This document shows positions 1-4,347 of a DNA stretch of 4,355 nucleotides, one piece after another. Numbering within the stretch: the stretch's first letter is position 1; every line of letters begins with the position of its first letter. The stretch comes from a virus (lineage: Duplodnaviria; Heunggongvirae; Uroviricota; Caudoviricetes). The stretch lies in the IMG/VR virus record IMGVR_UViG_2713896780_000016, one strand, 5' to 3'. The position numbers and the translations under genes were made by a program. The notes beneath the pieces were generated by a model. The model was not told the DNA's origin. It saw only the letters and a list, made by a program, of their open reading frames with translations, and did no database searches.

Positions 1-722
1 GTTTCAGAGCCAAGTTTTAACGCCTGCTCACGCAGCGCCTTAAACTGCGGGCTGTTTTTGTCGATTCGCGTCAGTGCCTGAACGCGGGACATCTCTTTGC
101 CGAACCCGAGCGCAGGCTGCAAAAAACGCCCGGCAGCATAGCCGCCCGCCGCTGCCGCACCAATTGCCAGCGCACCACCTGTTTTCAGTTTTCCCGCGGT
201 TTCCTGCGCGCGCGAATACCGCTCACGCGCCCGCGTTACACGCGCAAGCGCCTGCCGTTCGCGTTCAAGCTGGTTGTTGTACTGTTCGGTGCGTCTGATG
301 GCCTGCTGGATGGTGTTATCGCTGCCTGTCAGGGAAATGCCGTGGCGTTTCAGCTCTCCGCCAAGCTCCCGCATTTTCTGAATTTCCCGTGTGCGCGATT
401 CATTCAGGCGTTCAAGCCGGGTGCTTAACTGCTGCATCAGCTTTTGTTGTTTTTCGCTGAGCACTGTACCCGTGCGTTGTAACTGATTAAGGGCGTTAAG
501 CTGGCGTCGTGCTTTCACGATACCCGCATCCGCTTTACTGACAGCGTCGCGGGCGCGCTCAAATGATCGCGCCTGACGCTCGAGATTTTTGATCGCCCCC
601 TGCGTTCGCTGGATGGAGTCACCAAACTGCCCCATCAGGCGGCGGGCGTTTTCGGCAGGCCGGGTCAGCCTGTCAACGGCGCTGAAAGCGACCCGGATAT
701 CAAGAGTCTTCATTGTCTGCAT
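1..722 (-). CDS. T: Phage tail tape measure protein (P2 gpT-like), N-terminal part only; the 3' end lies beyond the left edge of the window
   Basis: The minus-strand frame is open from the ATG at 722-720 to the window edge; I checked every in-frame triplet and found no stop. It is not in the supplied ORF track, presumably because no stop lies in the window. Translation begins MQTMKTLDIRVAFSAVDRLTRPAENARRLMGQFGDSIQRTQGAIKNLERQ..., a Q/R/E-rich coiled-coil-like segment, then a Gly/Ala-rich hydrophobic stretch (GGALAIGAAAAGGYAAGRFLQPALGFGKEMSRVQALTRIDKNSPQFKALREQALKLGSE) typical of tape measure N-terminal domains. It sits directly downstream of E/E' as in P2. An alternative start is the ATG at 713-711 (MKTLD...), which has a GCGGGA Shine-Dalgarno about 9 nt upstream. 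Confidence 0.85.
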   Translation of the reverse strand, partial: MQTMKTLDIRVAFSAVDRLTRPAENARRLMGQFGDSIQRTQGAIKNLERQARSFERARDAVSKADAGIVKARRQLNALNQLQRTGTVLSEKQQKLMQQLSTRLERLNESRTREIQKMRELGGELKRHGISLTGSDNTIQQAIRRTEQYNNQLERERQALARVTRARERYSRAQETAGKLKTGGALAIGAAAAGGYAAGRFLQPALGFGKEMSRVQALTRIDKNSPQFKALREQALKLGSE

Positions 723-1330
723 TCCCGCTGCGAAGTGCCGCCCGCTCACGCCAGCTAACCACTTCGCCGGGCGTCATCATGAAGATTTCGGCGGGCGACC
801 AGTTAAAAATGGCGGCAATATCCGCCACAAAGTCTTCTATGTGCTCAAAGCACACAACCGTGATCAGGCTTCCGTCGCCTGTTCGTTCTTCCCGCCAGAG
901 TCCGCACCGCTCAAAAAATTTACGGCAACCACACATAACTGAATAAAGTCACGGGATGCCATTTTTTTGATCGTCACTTCATCCAGTCGCGGTGATGTCA
1001 CGCGTGACAGCAGCGTAAACATGGATTCCGCTTTCAGATTCAGCACATCAGACAGCGACAAATCTCGCAGAGATCCAGCCTGCTCAATAGCCCCGGTGAT
1101 CTCCACATACGTGATTTTTTCGCNNNNNNNNNNNNNNNNNNNNNNNNNNNNNNNNNNNNNNNNNNNNNNNNNNATCCAGCCTGCTCAATAGCCCCGGTGA
1201 TCTCCACATACGTGATTTTTTCGCCGCCTCGCTCAATTGGTTGGGTAAGTTTTACGCCACGCTCACTGGTTTCTTTCACAGTGTCAGTAACTACCGTGTT
1301 TTCGGTATCGATGTTTTTCGTCTCTTTCAT
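700..1330 (-). CDS. Predicted E+E' fusion product (about 176 aa) made by programmed -1 ribosomal frameshift at T TTT TTG; the E' extension overlaps the start of the tape measure gene
   Basis: The minus-strand heptamer TTTTTTG (rc of plus 912-918) lies in the E zero frame as AAT TTT TTG, i.e. X XXY YYZ = T TTT TTG. The -1 frame is open from 948 to the TGA at 702-700 (track ORF 700..936 is the same frame) and reads ...ERCGLWREERTGDGSLITVVCFEHIEDFVADIAAIFNWSPAEIFMMTPGEVVSWRERAALRSGNADNEDS. Its stop lies 23 nt inside the T ORF. Same heptamer and same E/E'/T arrangement as reported for phage P2. Confidence 0.55.
864..1330 (-). CDS. E: Tail assembly chaperone gpE-like (P2 E family); the reading frame is interrupted by an N-run with duplicated flanks, and is intact (about 121 aa) once the duplication is collapsed
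   Basis: ATG at 1330-1328 preceded by AAGGAG (rc of 1338-1343) with a 7-nt spacer. The 5' part reads MKETKNIDTENTVVTDTVKETSERGVKLTQPIERGGEKITYVEITGAIEQAG up to the gap. The same peptide ...EITGAIEQAG continues as SLRDLSLSDVLNLKAESMFTLLSRVTSPRLDEVTIKKMASRDFIQLCVVAVNFLSGADSGGKNEQATEA in the track ORF 864..1106. The two parts are in frame once the 51-bp duplicate plus 50 N (101 nt in total) is removed. Position is immediately after the tube gene and before the tape measure gene, and the pattern (G.LR..SL.DV...L..V..P.L) is as I recall for P2 gpE-type chaperones. Confidence 0.78.
912..918 (-). other. Candidate -1 programmed frameshift slippery heptamer T TTT TTG (recoding signal) near the 3' end of gene E
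   Basis: Plus strand 912-918 is CAAAAAA, so the minus strand is TTTTTTG, phased as T TTT TTG in the E frame. It sits within the 864..948 overlap between the E frame and the open -1 frame. Confidence 0.55.
1073..1123. repeat. 51-bp direct repeat, copy 1, abutting the left side of the N-run (probable unmerged contig-end overlap)
   Basis: atccagcctgctcaatagccccggtgatctccacatacgtgattttttcgc at 1073-1123 is identical to 1174-1224. Copy 1 ends exactly where the N-run begins. Confidence 0.9.
1124..1173. other. Run of 50 N (scaffold gap or masked bases) inside gene E
   Basis: Fifty consecutive n characters; the ORF track shows 17 X codons across it. Confidence 0.99.
1174..1224. repeat. 51-bp direct repeat, copy 2, abutting the right side of the N-run
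   Basis: Identical to 1073-1123 and starts at the first base after the N-run. The offset of 101 nt is not a multiple of 3, which explains the apparent frame break in E. Confidence 0.9.
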
Positions 1331-1352
1331 CAGGAAACTCCTTTCAGTCAGA

Positions 1353-1371
1353 GGCGACGCACTGCGCCGCC
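1353..1371 (-). promoter_or_regulatory. GC-rich RNA hairpin (8-bp stem, 3-nt loop) in the 54-nt tube-E intergenic spacer; possible attenuator or mRNA-stability element, not a canonical intrinsic terminator
   Basis: Minus-strand RNA GGCGGCGC-AGU-GCGUCGCC: seven Watson-Crick pairs plus one G-U wobble. No U-tract follows; downstream is UCUGACUGAAAGGAG, then the E start. Confidence 0.3.
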
Positions 1372-1384
1372 TGCATATTACTTA

Positions 1385-1897
1385 TCAGCCAAGCCCGAGC
1401 GCGGAACGGATGCGATCGGGCACAATGTCCTTGCCGTCCTTCCGGTAAATGAAGTTCAGCAGGTCAATCTCCCACAACGGGCGATCGTTAACACTCAGCT
1501 TGTAGTAGGTGTTTTTAATGGCGTAAGTGTGTGATGTGGCTTCGCCCTGTTTGGCTTCCCCCATATCAATTTCCGTCACACGTCCGCGCATTTCGACTTC
1601 ATACAGGTCGCTTTCTGCATCGGTGTAGTATTCACCCGCAAAACGCAGCAGCGTGCCGTCAATCGTGCCGCCATACTTAAGGAACAGCTCACGAACTGCG
1701 CCCCCCATGACAAAGCTCGCATCAAGCGCGGAGTCGTCCAGACCGAGATCAATACTTACCGCACCCATCATGCCACCACCCCGGTAGCTGTCGGTTTTGC
1801 GCGTCAGCTTAGGCAGAGTGACGGACGTCACCTTACCCACTTCGTTTTCACCATCCACAAACAGCGTAAAAAAGCGAAGATGTTTTGGTACAGCCAT
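1385..1897 (-). CDS. FII: Major tail tube protein (P2 FII-like), 170 aa
   Basis: Track ORF MAVPKHLRFFTLFVDGENEVGKVTSVTLPKLTRKTDSYRGGGMMGAVSIDLGLDDSALD... The size (~170 aa) and the TLPKLTRK..YRG.GM and GR..EIDMGE.KQGE motifs match the P2 FII tube family as I recall it. GGGAGG Shine-Dalgarno (rc of 1904-1909) 6 nt upstream of the ATG. The start overlaps the sheath stop (ATGA), directly downstream of the sheath gene. Confidence 0.9.
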   Translation of the reverse strand: MAVPKHLRFFTLFVDGENEVGKVTSVTLPKLTRKTDSYRGGGMMGAVSIDLGLDDSALDASFVMGGAVRELFLKYGGTIDGTLLRFAGEYYTDAESDLYEVEMRGRVTEIDMGEAKQGEATSHTYAIKNTYYKLSVNDRPLWEIDLLNFIYRKDGKDIVPDRIRSALGLG

Positions 1898-3081
1898 CAG
1901 GCACCTCCCAGCACCGCAAATGCGGGACCAAAGAATTCATCAGTAAACGACTGGTAAAGCTCCATGTCTTCCAGCGGGGGAACAGGCGTATATTTGTAGC
2001 GAATACGCACGCGCCCCTGACGTAAATTCGTGGTGCCGTTATCCACCACGTCATACCAGCACGACGCCCCAATCAGTTTCCCGGCAGTAACCAGTGAATC
2101 CAGTTTTGCCCTGATGGCACTGATAACATCTTTCACGTTCGCAGGCGTCAGTGGACTGTCGATGGTTTCAAACTGCGCTTCCGCAATTGAATCAGCCAGC
2201 ACCTGTGCGGTTCGGGTATACACCTCAAAGATGTAGGCGTTCGTTTCCGGTGTGCGGTTGCCCCAGAAGCGGAACCCGTTGCGACGAATAATGGTCGTGA
2301 TTTCTTTGTTGTTGAGGCTGTTGGCATCACTGTCTTCGGCCTGCAACGACCAGAACACATGCCTCGACATCCCCAGCACATTTTTAACCGGAACGTTGGA
2401 CAGCGATTTGTGCCAGCCCTGCTCATGGTCAATGTACGCACGAAGGCCGCACGCATAGGCAGGCGCGGGGAACGTTTCGTTTTTGCCACTTTTCGGGTTG
2501 TAGGCGATGAAGTCCGGCCATAAGAGCATCACCTCACGTTCGTTGAATTTCTGGCGGTAGGTAATCGCCTCAGCCATCGTGTTACAGCCGTGACATGAGG
2601 CATACACAAACGCGCGCAGTTTACCCGCAATCACGCACAGGGATTTTGTTACCGCCTCCGTGTCCAGCTCCGGCGCGGCCAGAATACGCGGACGGTATCC
2701 GATGCTTTCATCCTGCTCTGCAACAAGCAGCGCATACATCCCCGTATAGCTGCCGTCAGATTCAGAACCACCGATAACCAGTTGATCCTGCGTTTTTCCG
2801 TCTTCTTCTTTGTGTTCAGCCACGCGAACGACGATCACCTTTGTGCTCACCTGGTCTGCGATGGCCTTAAGCGCACGATAAAGCGTCCCCGTTGTTCCGC
2901 ATTTTCCCAGCACGTCATTGACGCGGGTCAGCAGTGTGGGCTTGTTCAGCGGGAACAGCTCCGCATCCGCATCATCCGCCGTTGCCACGATACCGATAAC
3001 ACTGGAATCAACATCATTAATCGCTGTTACCAGGTCGGTACTTTCCGTAACACGGGCACCATGAAAACGAGTTTCACTCAT
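1897..3081 (-). CDS. FI: Contractile tail sheath protein (P2 FI-like), 394 aa
   Basis: Track ORF MSETRFHGARVTESTDLVTAINDVDSSVIGIVATADDADAELFPLNKPTLLTRVNDVLGKCGTTGTLYRALKAIADQ... The DADAE.FPLNKP, LRAF.Y, WPDF, GWHK.LSNV, IRR.GFRFWGNRT, YTRTAQV and YTPVPPLE blocks and the ~395 aa length match P2-type sheath proteins as I recall them. AAGGGG Shine-Dalgarno (rc of 3090-3095) 8 nt upstream of the ATG at 3081. Confidence 0.93.
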   Translation of the reverse strand: MSETRFHGARVTESTDLVTAINDVDSSVIGIVATADDADAELFPLNKPTLLTRVNDVLGKCGTTGTLYRALKAIADQVSTKVIVVRVAEHKEEDGKTQDQLVIGGSESDGSYTGMYALLVAEQDESIGYRPRILAAPELDTEAVTKSLCVIAGKLRAFVYASCHGCNTMAEAITYRQKFNEREVMLLWPDFIAYNPKSGKNETFPAPAYACGLRAYIDHEQGWHKSLSNVPVKNVLGMSRHVFWSLQAEDSDANSLNNKEITTIIRRNGFRFWGNRTPETNAYIFEVYTRTAQVLADSIAEAQFETIDSPLTPANVKDVISAIRAKLDSLVTAGKLIGASCWYDVVDNGTTNLRQGRVRIRYKYTPVPPLEDMELYQSFTDEFFGPAFAVLGGA

Positions 3082-3237
3082 AGCTTCAGCCCCTTGTATC
3101 CGTTAAATGATTCGGCAACAATCATCACCCACCACGCGCGTAATCTCACCCCTGCGCCGTTCTCCCGCCACGGCGACAACAAAAAGCAGTAACCCCCTCC
3201 GCACGCACATGCGACCATGCCGCACAGGGAGGGAAAG

Positions 3238-4347
3238 ATGACCGACACCACCATGCAATTGCTCAGTCAGAGCACAGACCCCGTGAAAATGCCGGATTTT
3301 GATATTCTCGCGGAGGGGAAAACGCTGTCCGGCGTGGCAGAGCGCCTGATGAGTCTGTCACTGACCGACAACCGGGGATTTGAAGCGGACCAGCTCACCA
3401 TCACGCTGGATGATGCGGATGGTCAGTTGCAGCTACCGCCACGGGGCGCGCGCCTGACGGTTCTCATTGGCTGGAAAGGAGAACCGCTGACAGAAAAAGG
3501 CACTTACATTGTTGATGAAATCGCTCACGAAGGTCCGCCGGACAGGCTGACTGTTTCAGCCAGAAGCGCAGATTTTCGGGATGAATTTAACGTTAAACGT
3601 GAAGTGTCCTGGCATGATGTGACCGTTGAGCGCGTGGTATCTGCTATCGCTCACCGGTACGGCCTGAAACCGCAAATCAGCGAAATGCTGATGGATATCG
3701 AAATCGACCACGCCGACCAGACCGAAGAAAGCGACATGTCCTTCCTTACGCGCATGGCGGAAATGCTGGGCGCAATCACCACGGTAAAAAGCGGTAATCT
3801 GTTATTCATCATGCCAGGCGGTGGCGTGAACGCACAGGGAAAACCATTGCCATCGTTTGCCATCACACGCAGCAGCGGCGATCGCCATCAGTTTCGCATT
3901 GCTGACCGCGAGGCGTATACGGGTGTACGCGCCTACTGGCTTGATCTTAATTACGGGAAAAAGAAAAAAGTCAGCGTGAAACGCCGCAAACCGCCAAAAC
4001 CCAAAAAGGAGAAAAGCAGCAGCCGTGAAGGTGATTATATGGAAGGTGCGGAAGGCAATGTGTTTGTGTTACGCAAGACTTATCAGAACGAGCAGGCAGC
4101 AAGACGCGCAGCGGCGGCAAAGTGGCAGCAGCTACAACGCGGAGCCGCATCATTTTCCATCACGCTGGCACGTGGACGTGCAGAACTCTACCCCGAAATG
4201 CATGGTACGGTAACAGGATTTAAAAGCGAGATTGATAATCAGGACTGGATTATTGCAAAAGCCGAGCACACCATTGATAACAGCGGCTTTACCACGCAGC
4301 TTGAGCTTGAGGCAAAAATCCCGGAATGGATAGCGGAAACAGAGTGA
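3238..4347 (+). CDS. D: Phage late control gene D protein (P2 gpD-like tail/baseplate hub-type protein), about 369 aa
   Basis: Track ORF 3217..4347. I prefer the internal ATG at 3238 because GGAGG (3228-3232) lies 5 nt upstream, whereas the ATG at 3217 has no Shine-Dalgarno. The protein (MTDTTMQLL...LTITLDDADGQLQLPPRGARLTVLIGWKGE...EGPPDRLTVSARSADFR...DQTEESDMSFLTRMAEMLGA...) has the size and conserved blocks I associate with the gpD family. Stop TGA at 4345-4347. Confidence 0.88.
   Translation: MTDTTMQLLSQSTDPVKMPDFDILAEGKTLSGVAERLMSLSLTDNRGFEADQLTITLDDADGQLQLPPRGARLTVLIGWKGEPLTEKGTYIVDEIAHEGPPDRLTVSARSADFRDEFNVKREVSWHDVTVERVVSAIAHRYGLKPQISEMLMDIEIDHADQTEESDMSFLTRMAEMLGAITTVKSGNLLFIMPGGGVNAQGKPLPSFAITRSSGDRHQFRIADREAYTGVRAYWLDLNYGKKKKVSVKRRKPPKPKKEKSSSREGDYMEGAEGNVFVLRKTYQNEQAARRAAAAKWQQLQRGAASFSITLARGRAELYPEMHGTVTGFKSEIDNQDWIIAKAEHTIDNSGFTTQLELEAKIPEWIAETE

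Follow-up and report, generated by a model that had tools for sequence, protein, structure and literature searches.

Does gene E of this locus, together with the reading frame E' that overlaps it in the -1 frame, encode two products by programmed -1 frameshifting, or is E' expressed by some other route? The window (the whole 4,355-nt stretch of DNA analysed) displayed 99% identity to phage P88 (Xuanwuvirus, Peduoviridae), and the locus was a P88-like E. coli prophage of a common type. We put at about 90% the probability that E and the overlapping E' constituted the tail-assembly-chaperone pair of this P2-like (P88/Xuanwuvirus) prophage, produced by a programmed -1 frameshift.

Gene neighbourhood and anatomy of the junction

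The minus strand of the window displayed the gene order sheath–tube–E–E'–T, composed of the tail sheath gene FI (1897..3081), the tail tube gene FII (1385..1897; PF04985, 7.5e-47), the tail assembly chaperone gene E (864..1330; a gpE homologue), the E' segment (700..912), and the 5' part of the tape measure gene T (1..722; PHROG 28), which started at ATG 713 or ATG 722 and ran off the window. E/E' thus lay between FII and T, and the presence of FII as the upstream neighbour of E defined a tube–chaperone–tape measure order. The first-pass annotation had assigned a P2 E/E', G/GT-type recoding architecture to this region, and the assignment was supported by two overlapping open reading frames directly upstream of T and by a -1 slippery site (see below).

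E ran from ATG 1330..1328 to TGA 866..864 on the minus strand, and a Shine-Dalgarno motif AGGAG (1338..1342, minus strand) served the single start codon common to E and E+E'. E was interrupted by a 50-N scaffold gap (1124..1173), an assembly artefact rather than biology, with the two identical copies of a 51-nt duplication on either side (1174..1224 and 1073..1123). Collapsing the gap gave an E of 121 aa and was validated in two ways: (i) the P88 E gene (gp47) was 366 nt long and (ii) two contigs were 100% identical across the collapsed 530 nt. The product sizes predicted earlier, 121 aa for E and 176 aa for E+E', were right only with the 50-N gap and the 51-nt duplication collapsed in this way.

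E belonged to PHROG 103 (2.3e-35), which was the family of P2 gpE too (6.4e-45), and matched P2 gpE directly by BLASTP (6e-12); against Pfam PF10109 (Phage_TAC_7) it reached 17.2 bits, below the cut-off of 25, with the same profile span of 2-78 as for P2 gpE. E was therefore homologous to P2 gpE, and its stop codon was found where predicted rather than elsewhere. NCBIfam contained no model matching E or E', and none for P2 gpE either; a search for a solved structure of a relative of E/E' found none.

The slippery heptamer T TTT TTG (912..918, minus strand) was the same as that of the P2 E/E' site and stood in the phase of the E frame, the codons at the site being AAT (920-918), TTT (917-915), and TTG (914-912); direct reading of the sequence thus bore out the X XXY YYZ phasing claimed for it at first pass. 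Overlapping T TTT TTG was another heptamer in phase with E, A AAT TTT (915..921, minus strand). On the upstream side the -1 frame was shut by a TGA (949..951, minus strand), so that any shift before this codon would be unproductive; from 948 the frame was open, and it continued for 70 codons beyond the heptamer to a TGA at 702..700 within the tape measure gene, the same length of extension as had been described before. Since the frame opened at 948 behind the TGA and was ended by TGA 702..700, the span 700..948 that had originally been singled out was exactly the open -1 frame.

The string TTTTTTG by itself was not rare, with three occurrences in the window versus 1.28 expected from shuffles; this difference was not significant, heptamer frequency was rejected as evidence, and the case was consequently built on phase, position, and conservation. 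Shuffled controls folded as well as the 50 nt and 90 nt past the heptamer (z = +0.68 and -0.68, respectively), giving no sign of a stem-loop or pseudoknot of the dnaX/IS type 5–9 nt past the heptamer, and the window contained no clear upstream Shine-Dalgarno-like stimulator. A terminator-like hairpin (828..809, minus strand) was considered as a slippage stimulator and rejected, because it lay 84 nt downstream of the heptamer, too far away, and because P88 read ADIAVIF in place of the ADIAAIF codons within which the hairpin was located. The antisense open reading frames 589..942 and 713..946 (both plus strand) were likewise rejected as genes: they had no family support, and the periodicity of variability fitted the minus-strand frames.

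From this anatomy the following course of expression may be proposed. Ribosomes would initiate at the lone Shine-Dalgarno-served ATG (1330), and the majority would stop at TGA 866..864 to yield the 121-aa E; a minority would slip back by one nucleotide on A AAT TTT TTG (921..912), chiefly on T TTT TTG, where the P-site tRNA-Phe and the A-site tRNA-Leu would re-pair in the -1 frame, and these slipped ribosomes would read the 70 further codons to TGA 702..700, yielding the 176-aa E+E'. By analogy with lambda G/GT, the common N-terminal domain might coat the tape measure protein T while the E' domain might recruit the tube protein, and the frameshift efficiency would fix the E : E+E' ratio. We infer that the shift takes place in this phage, and its efficiency and the binding partners are likewise inferred.

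Conservation of the slippery site and of the E' peptide

The sequence comparison was applied to a census set of 137 unique (non-redundant) homologous junctions. An in-phase X XXY YYZ heptamer was present in all 137 of them (TTTTTTG in 102), against an in-phase background of 0.0033 per codon in the neighbouring T genes; out-of-phase heptamers in the corresponding zones numbered 10. The heptamers occurring at the homologous site were TTTTTTG, TTTTTTA, CCCTTTC, AAATTTT, AAATTTC, GGGAAAG, and TTTTTTT, so that the census documented cleanly which heptamers nature tolerates at a single homologous position. Codon choice at the site was equally constrained: Phe-Leu was always encoded there by TTT-TTG or TTT-TTA and never with CTG, which made up 64% of the Leu codons elsewhere in E. 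The in-phase slippery site was thus under selection.

The first-pass annotation had proposed aligning E and E' with P2 and with homologues in P2-like phages, and the resulting alignment displayed a conserved heptamer position. Of 18 diverse Peduoviridae, 15 had the slip site in a common alignment column although the nucleotides on either side were unrelated, and the heptamer of the window occupied column 123, that of the annotated P2 slip site. In the GC-rich phages RSA1, phiE12-2, and Milagro, which were framed by their annotated E coordinates, the -1 frame was open far upstream, and an in-phase TTTTTTG was found in all three.

The peptide encoded by the E' segment, whose 70 codons of the -1 frame are followed by TGA 702..700, was conserved as well. 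E' matched Pfam PF06528 (Phage_P2_GpE) with 46.9 bits (cut-off 23, E = 1.9e-12), the GpE domain covering residues 135-170 of the predicted fusion; it belonged to PHROG 1756 (2e-38), the family of P2 E' too, and was detected by tblastn in 288 phage records. The predicted fusion aligned with P2 E+E' across the junction (VNFL|ER versus VGFL|VA, E = 3e-25), establishing homology to both P2 products. Before the heptamer, variable sites at codon positions 1/2/3 of the E frame numbered 27/16/37; after it, the corresponding counts for the -1 frame were 8/5/13 where E and E' overlap and, in the stretch belonging to E' only, 14/7/35 (p = 1e-5). The position-3 variability peak therefore changed frames at the heptamer, from E to -1, and selection acted on the -1-frame peptide. 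Together with the PF06528 match and the tblastn records, this third-position pattern disposed of the concern, raised at the outset, that the -1 extension might not be conserved at the protein level.

Other readings of the junction

Among the other readings, the one that survived best kept the frameshift but moved the productive slip to A AAT TTT (921..915), which would give the junction VNFFER instead of VNFLER. Both heptamers were in phase, and a sub-clade represented by Shae_phiSM/L106 (87-88% identical) had TTTTATG in place of TTTTTTG and retained A AAT TTT only, so that A AAT TTT alone appeared sufficient there. For the window itself this reading was unlikely: TTTTTTG was the experimentally defined P2 site and by far the commonest in the census (102/137), relatives such as L116 (TAATTTTTTG) had T TTT TTG alone, and tRNA-Asn moving from AAU to AAA would be left with a wobble mismatch.

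Next came the reading without recoding, in which E' would be a small gene with its own start, either ATG 936 (giving 78 aa) or GTG 855 (giving 51 aa). Both open reading frames were present in the sequence, and 'GpE family phage tail protein' was annotated as a separate gene in P88, in PhiR44_2, and by PGAP, both versions having been deposited many times; the databases, however, disagreed on the start (51 versus 78 aa), indicating that the gene callers were guessing. No Shine-Dalgarno motif was found ahead of either ATG 936 or GTG 855, the codon at position 936 varied within the clade among ATG, GTG, and GTC, and an E'-frame start bearing a Shine-Dalgarno motif occurred in only 7 of the 137 junctions. 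Moreover, the conserved W..ER.GDG segment and the -1-frame third-position variability started immediately past the heptamer, ahead of GTG 855, and in P2 the -1 frame opened only 9 nt ahead of the heptamer. With its candidate starts unconserved and lacking a ribosome-binding motif, independent initiation of E', which the first-pass annotation had listed among the findings that would speak against it, was very improbable.

Efficient transcriptional slippage in bacteria generally requires longer runs than the one at this site. Addition of one U by RNA polymerase in the T6 run, with normal translation of the edited mRNA into E+E', was accordingly extremely improbable despite the T6 homopolymer and two related contigs with T7 and T8 at the run, given that polymerase slippage is phase-independent, yet 137/137 sites stood in the tRNA re-pairing phase, that the C CCT TTC, A AAT TTT(ATG), and G GGA AAG lineages had runs of only 3-4 bases and still satisfied X XXY YYZ, and that the T8 contig had a further break in frame, suggestive of sequencing error.

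Relation to known systems, the tape measure gene, and database annotation

The reading preferred here, programmed -1 frameshifting by the ribosome, corresponded to a mechanism already published for P2-like phages, and the site was real but ordinary. In P2, a -1 shift at TTTTTTG is described as giving a 91-aa E and a 142-aa E+E' (summarised in PMC3091744, citing Christie 2002 and Xu 2004), and the P2 record carried an annotated E+E' join with its slip site at TTTTTTG. The window and P2 shared the heptamer T TTT TTG, its alignment column, the -1 direction, the order FI, FII, E, E', T, an E' ending a few nucleotides within T, the families PHROG 103, PHROG 1756, and PF06528, and the lack of a downstream hairpin, a lack that is also reported for P2 and its relatives (PMC3091744). 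Identity to P2 was only ~31%, and the window differed from P2 in several respects: (i) E was 121 aa versus 91, with a longer N-terminus; (ii) the extension had 70 codons versus 57, including the extra W..ER.GDG segment; (iii) the E tail past the slip site had 15 codons versus 6; (iv) the additional overlapping heptamer A AAT TTT was present; and (v) the gpD gene was divergent and located upstream of the sheath gene, whereas it was downstream of U in P2. The same heptamer, phase, and module were found in phage 186 H (orf51/orf52), PSP3, and the Burkholderia phages KS5, KS14, KL3, and Milagro (PMC3091744); the frameshift was predicted, annotated, or published for these phages but neither annotated nor published for the P88/Xuanwuvirus clade. 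The comparison confirmed that the prophage carried an intact P2-type tail-assembly module, from which nothing new followed biologically.

The lambda G/G-T system, as summarised in PMC5009743 from the work of Levin 1993 and of Xu, Hendrix and Duda 2004, 2013, and 2014, shared with the window the overlapping open reading frames just ahead of the tape measure gene and the -1 slippery site; similarity in sequence is not to be expected. The lambda heptamer was G GGA AAG, which was also used by a Mannheimia P2-like phage, and the tail was non-contractile in lambda but contractile here. That summary gives the frameshift of the P2 group as 2- to 3-fold more efficient than that of lambda, and lambda gpG and gpGT as absent from mature virions (PMC5009743). 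E. coli dnaX likewise displayed an X XXY YYZ tandem-slippage heptamer (A AAA AAG) read in bacterial translation; dnaX, however, had an upstream Shine-Dalgarno-like element and a downstream hairpin, whereas the window had no hairpin and no clear Shine-Dalgarno-like element, and the product was truncated in dnaX but extended here.

The earlier statement that E' ended 23 nt inside T held if T started at ATG 722; with ATG 713, the likelier start as judged from the deposited annotations seen and from its being the more conserved ATG, the overlap was 14 nt. Across 131 homologous loci the E' stop abutted or overlapped the T ATG (-3 to +23 nt), and a Shine-Dalgarno-like motif preceded T in 49 of 131 loci versus E in 97 of 137; in the window a weak GGGA motif lay upstream of ATG 713. 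Ribosomes remaining in the 0 frame of E would terminate ~140 nt upstream, a distance too great for reinitiation at T. These positional relations leave room for a tentative and rather doubtful proposal, namely that T is translated mainly by coupling to the frameshifted ribosomes; if so, the frameshift efficiency would determine how much T is made in addition to the E : E+E' ratio, and the fusion and the tape measure would be linked in their stoichiometry.

The junction was found in 1,374 of 5,426 complete E. coli genomes. In GenBank/RefSeq, these genomes and the P88-type phage records listed E' as a free-standing gene, 51 or 78 aa long, under the name 'GpE family phage tail protein', and the 176-aa fusion was absent among ~15 billion deposited proteins. 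The practical value of the site accordingly lies in annotation: pipelines could flag, as a simple rule, any in-phase X XXY YYZ heptamer that is followed in the -1 frame by a PF06528 match.

Gene order of the tail module and the gap in E

The first 1,123 nt of the window were 99% identical to Escherichia phage P88 (Peduoviridae, genus Xuanwuvirus), and other Xuanwuvirus coliphages together with one Citrobacter phage displayed 94-99% identity to the window. The minus strand carried the tail sheath gene FI (3081..1897; PF04984 and PF17482), the tail tube gene FII (1897..1385; PF04985, 7.5e-47), the tail assembly chaperone gene E (1330..864 with the gap described below, encoding a 121-aa ORF once this was collapsed), the overlapping -1 frame E' (open frame 948..700), and the start of the tape measure gene T (PHROG 28, 3e-55), which continued beyond the window edge. 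A divergent gpD-like hub gene (3217..4347, plus strand; PF05954) lay upstream of the sheath gene, whereas in P2 gpD comes after T and U; this module order, rearranged with respect to P2, was shared by the window and P88.

A gap of 50 Ns (1124..1173) split E, and the sequence on its two sides was an exact 51-nt duplication (1174..1224 and 1073..1123). As written, E had a literal span of 467 nt, which was not a multiple of 3, leaving the ORF broken and out of frame. With the gap collapsed, E measured 366 nt, equal to P88 gp47, and two contigs were 100% identical to the collapsed sequence over 530 nt; the gap was thus a scaffolding artefact, namely two overlapping contig ends joined with Ns. Between FII and E, a GC-rich 9-bp hairpin without a U-tract (AGGCGGCGCAGUGCGUCGCCU) was located at 1352..1372 (minus strand), and at the same position phage 186 had an annotated 'partial terminator tI' and a Mannheimia phage a rho-independent terminator. 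The fold of this hairpin was not significant against shuffles (z = -1.23); it may attenuate chaperone and tape measure expression relative to sheath and tube.

The E-E' junction and its conservation

TTTTTTG was present at 918..912 (minus strand), and its phase was T TTT TTG, because the E frame read GTA AAT TTT TTG AGC (V N F L S) at this site. The -1 frame was closed upstream by TGA 951..949, open from 948, and extended for 70 codons past the heptamer to TGA 702..700; the predicted products were E of 121 aa and E+E' of 176 aa (106 N-terminal residues plus 70). The first-pass annotation had described the same heptamer and slippery phase, the same 70-codon extension, and the same two product sizes, all of which were reproduced from the sequence. 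Its further claim that E' ended 23 nt inside T held for T starting from ATG 722 but not for T starting from ATG 713, which gave 14 nt; annotations of P88 and its relatives start T at 713, and 14 nt was the overlap that recurred among homologues. T TTT TTG overlapped with another in-phase heptamer, A AAT TTT (921..915). An A7 run in E (962..968, minus strand; ATC AAA AAA ATG) lay 44 nt before the slip site. Its phase did not suit tandem slippage, and a shift there would be unproductive because the run preceded the -1 frame stop 951..949.

The count of TTTTTTG alone was ordinary (3 in the window versus 1.28 expected), and the sequence comparison was applied to two sets of homologous loci: (i) 17 annotated loci from different Peduoviridae genera and (ii) 160 further loci from an E' profile search of bacterial genomes and IMG/VR, of which 150 were analysable and gave 137 unique junctions. 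In 15/18 sequences of the first set, the slip site occupied a single alignment column despite unrelated flanking nucleotides; Shae_phiSM (A AAT TTT) and Kp4847-1 (C CCT TTC) had variant heptamers one codon earlier, and a Mannheimia phage had G GGA AAG at another position. In the second set, all 137 unique junctions (137/137) contained an in-phase X XXY YYZ heptamer within the zone where both frames were open: TTTTTTG (102 junctions), CCCTTTC (15), TTTTTTA (12-13), AAATTTT (6), and AAATTTC (1). Only 10 out-of-phase heptamers occurred in the same zones, and the adjacent T genes, taken as control, had in-phase heptamers at 202/60,863 codons (0.0033 per codon). TTT-TTG and TTT-TTA were the only encodings of Phe-Leu at the site; CTG was never used there, although it accounted for 1,078/1,672 Leu codons elsewhere in E, and this avoidance indicated nucleotide-level selection beyond that on amino acids. 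Among sequences at least 97% identical, variable sites numbered 0/55 in the heptamer plus overlap versus 30/311 in the rest of E.

The slip-site T6 run was T7 or T8 in two contigs, L117 (IMGVR_UViG_2565956773_000017, ~1479) and L120 (IMGVR_UViG_2880350357_000012, ~1478). E+E' of the T7 contig was one in-frame ORF, making a separate E impossible, and this contig may represent a sequencing error or a real variant; the T8 contig had another frame break in its E and was therefore probably error-prone, its run probably reflecting sequencing errors in the homopolymer. A normal C CCT TTT TTG was present in the sister contig L119.

The -1 frame extension proposed in the first-pass annotation proved to be conserved as protein: its 70 residues matched Pfam PF06528 (Phage_P2_GpE; 46.9 bits, cut-off 23) and PHROG 1756 (2e-38), and tblastn hits to it came from 288 phage records, among them P2, 186, W-phi, and PSP3. 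The full fusion aligned with P2 gpE+E' through the junction (E = 3e-25), E alone matched P2 gpE at 6e-12, and P2 gpE and E' belonged to the same two PHROGs as E and E' of the window. Codon-position variability was analysed across 23 aligned sequences of the window's clade (69-100% identity): ahead of the heptamer, the peak of variable sites was at E-frame position 3 (27/16/37), and past it at -1 frame position 3 (8/5/13 in the overlap and 14/7/35 in the E'-only part; chi-square p = 1e-5), so the -1 frame was constrained from the heptamer onward.

Two further elements were located within E'. A terminator-like hairpin plus T-run (GTGGCGGATATTGCCGCCATTTTT; 809..828, minus strand) fell within ADIAAIF, the best-conserved motif of E'; the P88 version of this motif was ADIAVIF, so the stem was probably not preserved, and the hairpin was most likely a by-product of coding. 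The stretch 746..777 (minus strand; 601-634 in locus L179) exactly matched a 32-nt type I-E CRISPR spacer from an array in E. coli strain GmM066 (NZ_CM183652.1), and the protospacer was preceded by ATG, a permissive I-E PAM, which suggests past CRISPR immunity against P88-type phages.

Probable programmed frameshifting and its alternatives

P2-type programmed -1 ribosomal frameshifting was the best explanation of the junction: from one start codon, ribosomes would produce mostly E (121 aa) and, in a minority, E+E' (176 aa). This supports the first-pass reading, including the likeness to the G/GT recoding architecture. The window agreed with the P2 gpE/gpE+E' family in every feature testable from sequence. 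The recoding site is of textbook type, and the prophage that carries it is very common; the junction was present in 1,374/5,426 complete E. coli genomes. That P2-like phages use this mechanism, and that it is conserved among them, has already been published, and the gap lies in annotation: E' is entered as a gene of its own in P88, PhiR44_2, and RefSeq E. coli genomes, and neither possible 176-aa fusion was found in public databases.

Taken literally, such entries would make E' an independently initiated gene, but this is very improbable: no Shine-Dalgarno (SD) motif preceded ATG 936 or GTG 855, while E had AGGAG; codon 936 varied within the clade (ATG, GTG, or GTC); an E'-frame start with an SD-like motif was found in only 7/137 junctions; E' was deposited as both 51 aa and 78 aa, indicating an arbitrary choice of start by gene callers; and constraint on the -1 frame began upstream of GTG 855, the GenBank start of E'. 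Transcriptional slippage, to which the T7 and T8 runs of two contigs could point, is slightly less probable still, since polymerase slippage is indifferent to reading phase, yet 137/137 sites were in the phase for tRNA re-pairing, and several lineages had heptamers with runs of just 3 or 4 identical bases.

Comparison with P2 and lambda, and the start of T

For programmed frameshifting in P2, the relevant passage of PMC3091744 (citing Christie et al. 2002 and Xu et al. 2004) gives a -1 shift at TTTTTTG yielding 91-aa E and 142-aa E+E', and mentions the P2 site as having no downstream secondary structure; in the window, no downstream RNA structure beyond shuffled controls was found. The differences from P2 (~31% identity) were quantitative: the window had a longer N-terminus of E, an extension of 70 rather than 57 codons with an extra W..ER.GDG segment (common to the window and its Klebsiella and Serratia relatives), and a tandem heptamer. 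The Shae_phiSM/L106 sub-clade kept only A AAT TTT, which was thus evidently sufficient alone, and either overlapping heptamer would be a candidate productive site in the window. SD-like AAGGTG or GAGGT was found 7-13 nt upstream of TTTTTTG in P2 (L004), 186 (L013), and three other loci (L009, L010, and L012), resembling the dnaX upstream stimulator, whereas the window had only GTGGTTG there; this motif may reflect conserved K/E-V-x-G codons.

In lambda, the domain common to G and GT binds the tape measure protein and the one added by the frameshift binds the major tail subunit, the G/GT ratio is critical, and neither product is found in virions; frameshifting in P2-like phages is 2- to 3-fold more efficient than in lambda (PMC5009743). 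By homology and position, we infer that E and E' of the window would have the corresponding binding roles.

The position of the T start hints, quite tentatively, that T translation might be coupled to ribosomes finishing E+E': the E' stop overlapped or abutted the T ATG by -3 to +23 nt (131 loci), and the T start of the window lay inside the last 14-23 nt of E' (700..722, minus strand) without a good SD, having only GGGA. SD-like motifs preceded T starts in 49/131 loci versus E starts in 97/137. Within T, another in-phase T TTT TTG was located at 120..126 (minus strand; about codon 199, ...AGRFLQPA...), after which the -1 frame was open for 26 codons only; it was also present in 13 unique related loci, apparently close relatives only, and may have arisen by chance and persisted by descent, or may give rise to truncated T.
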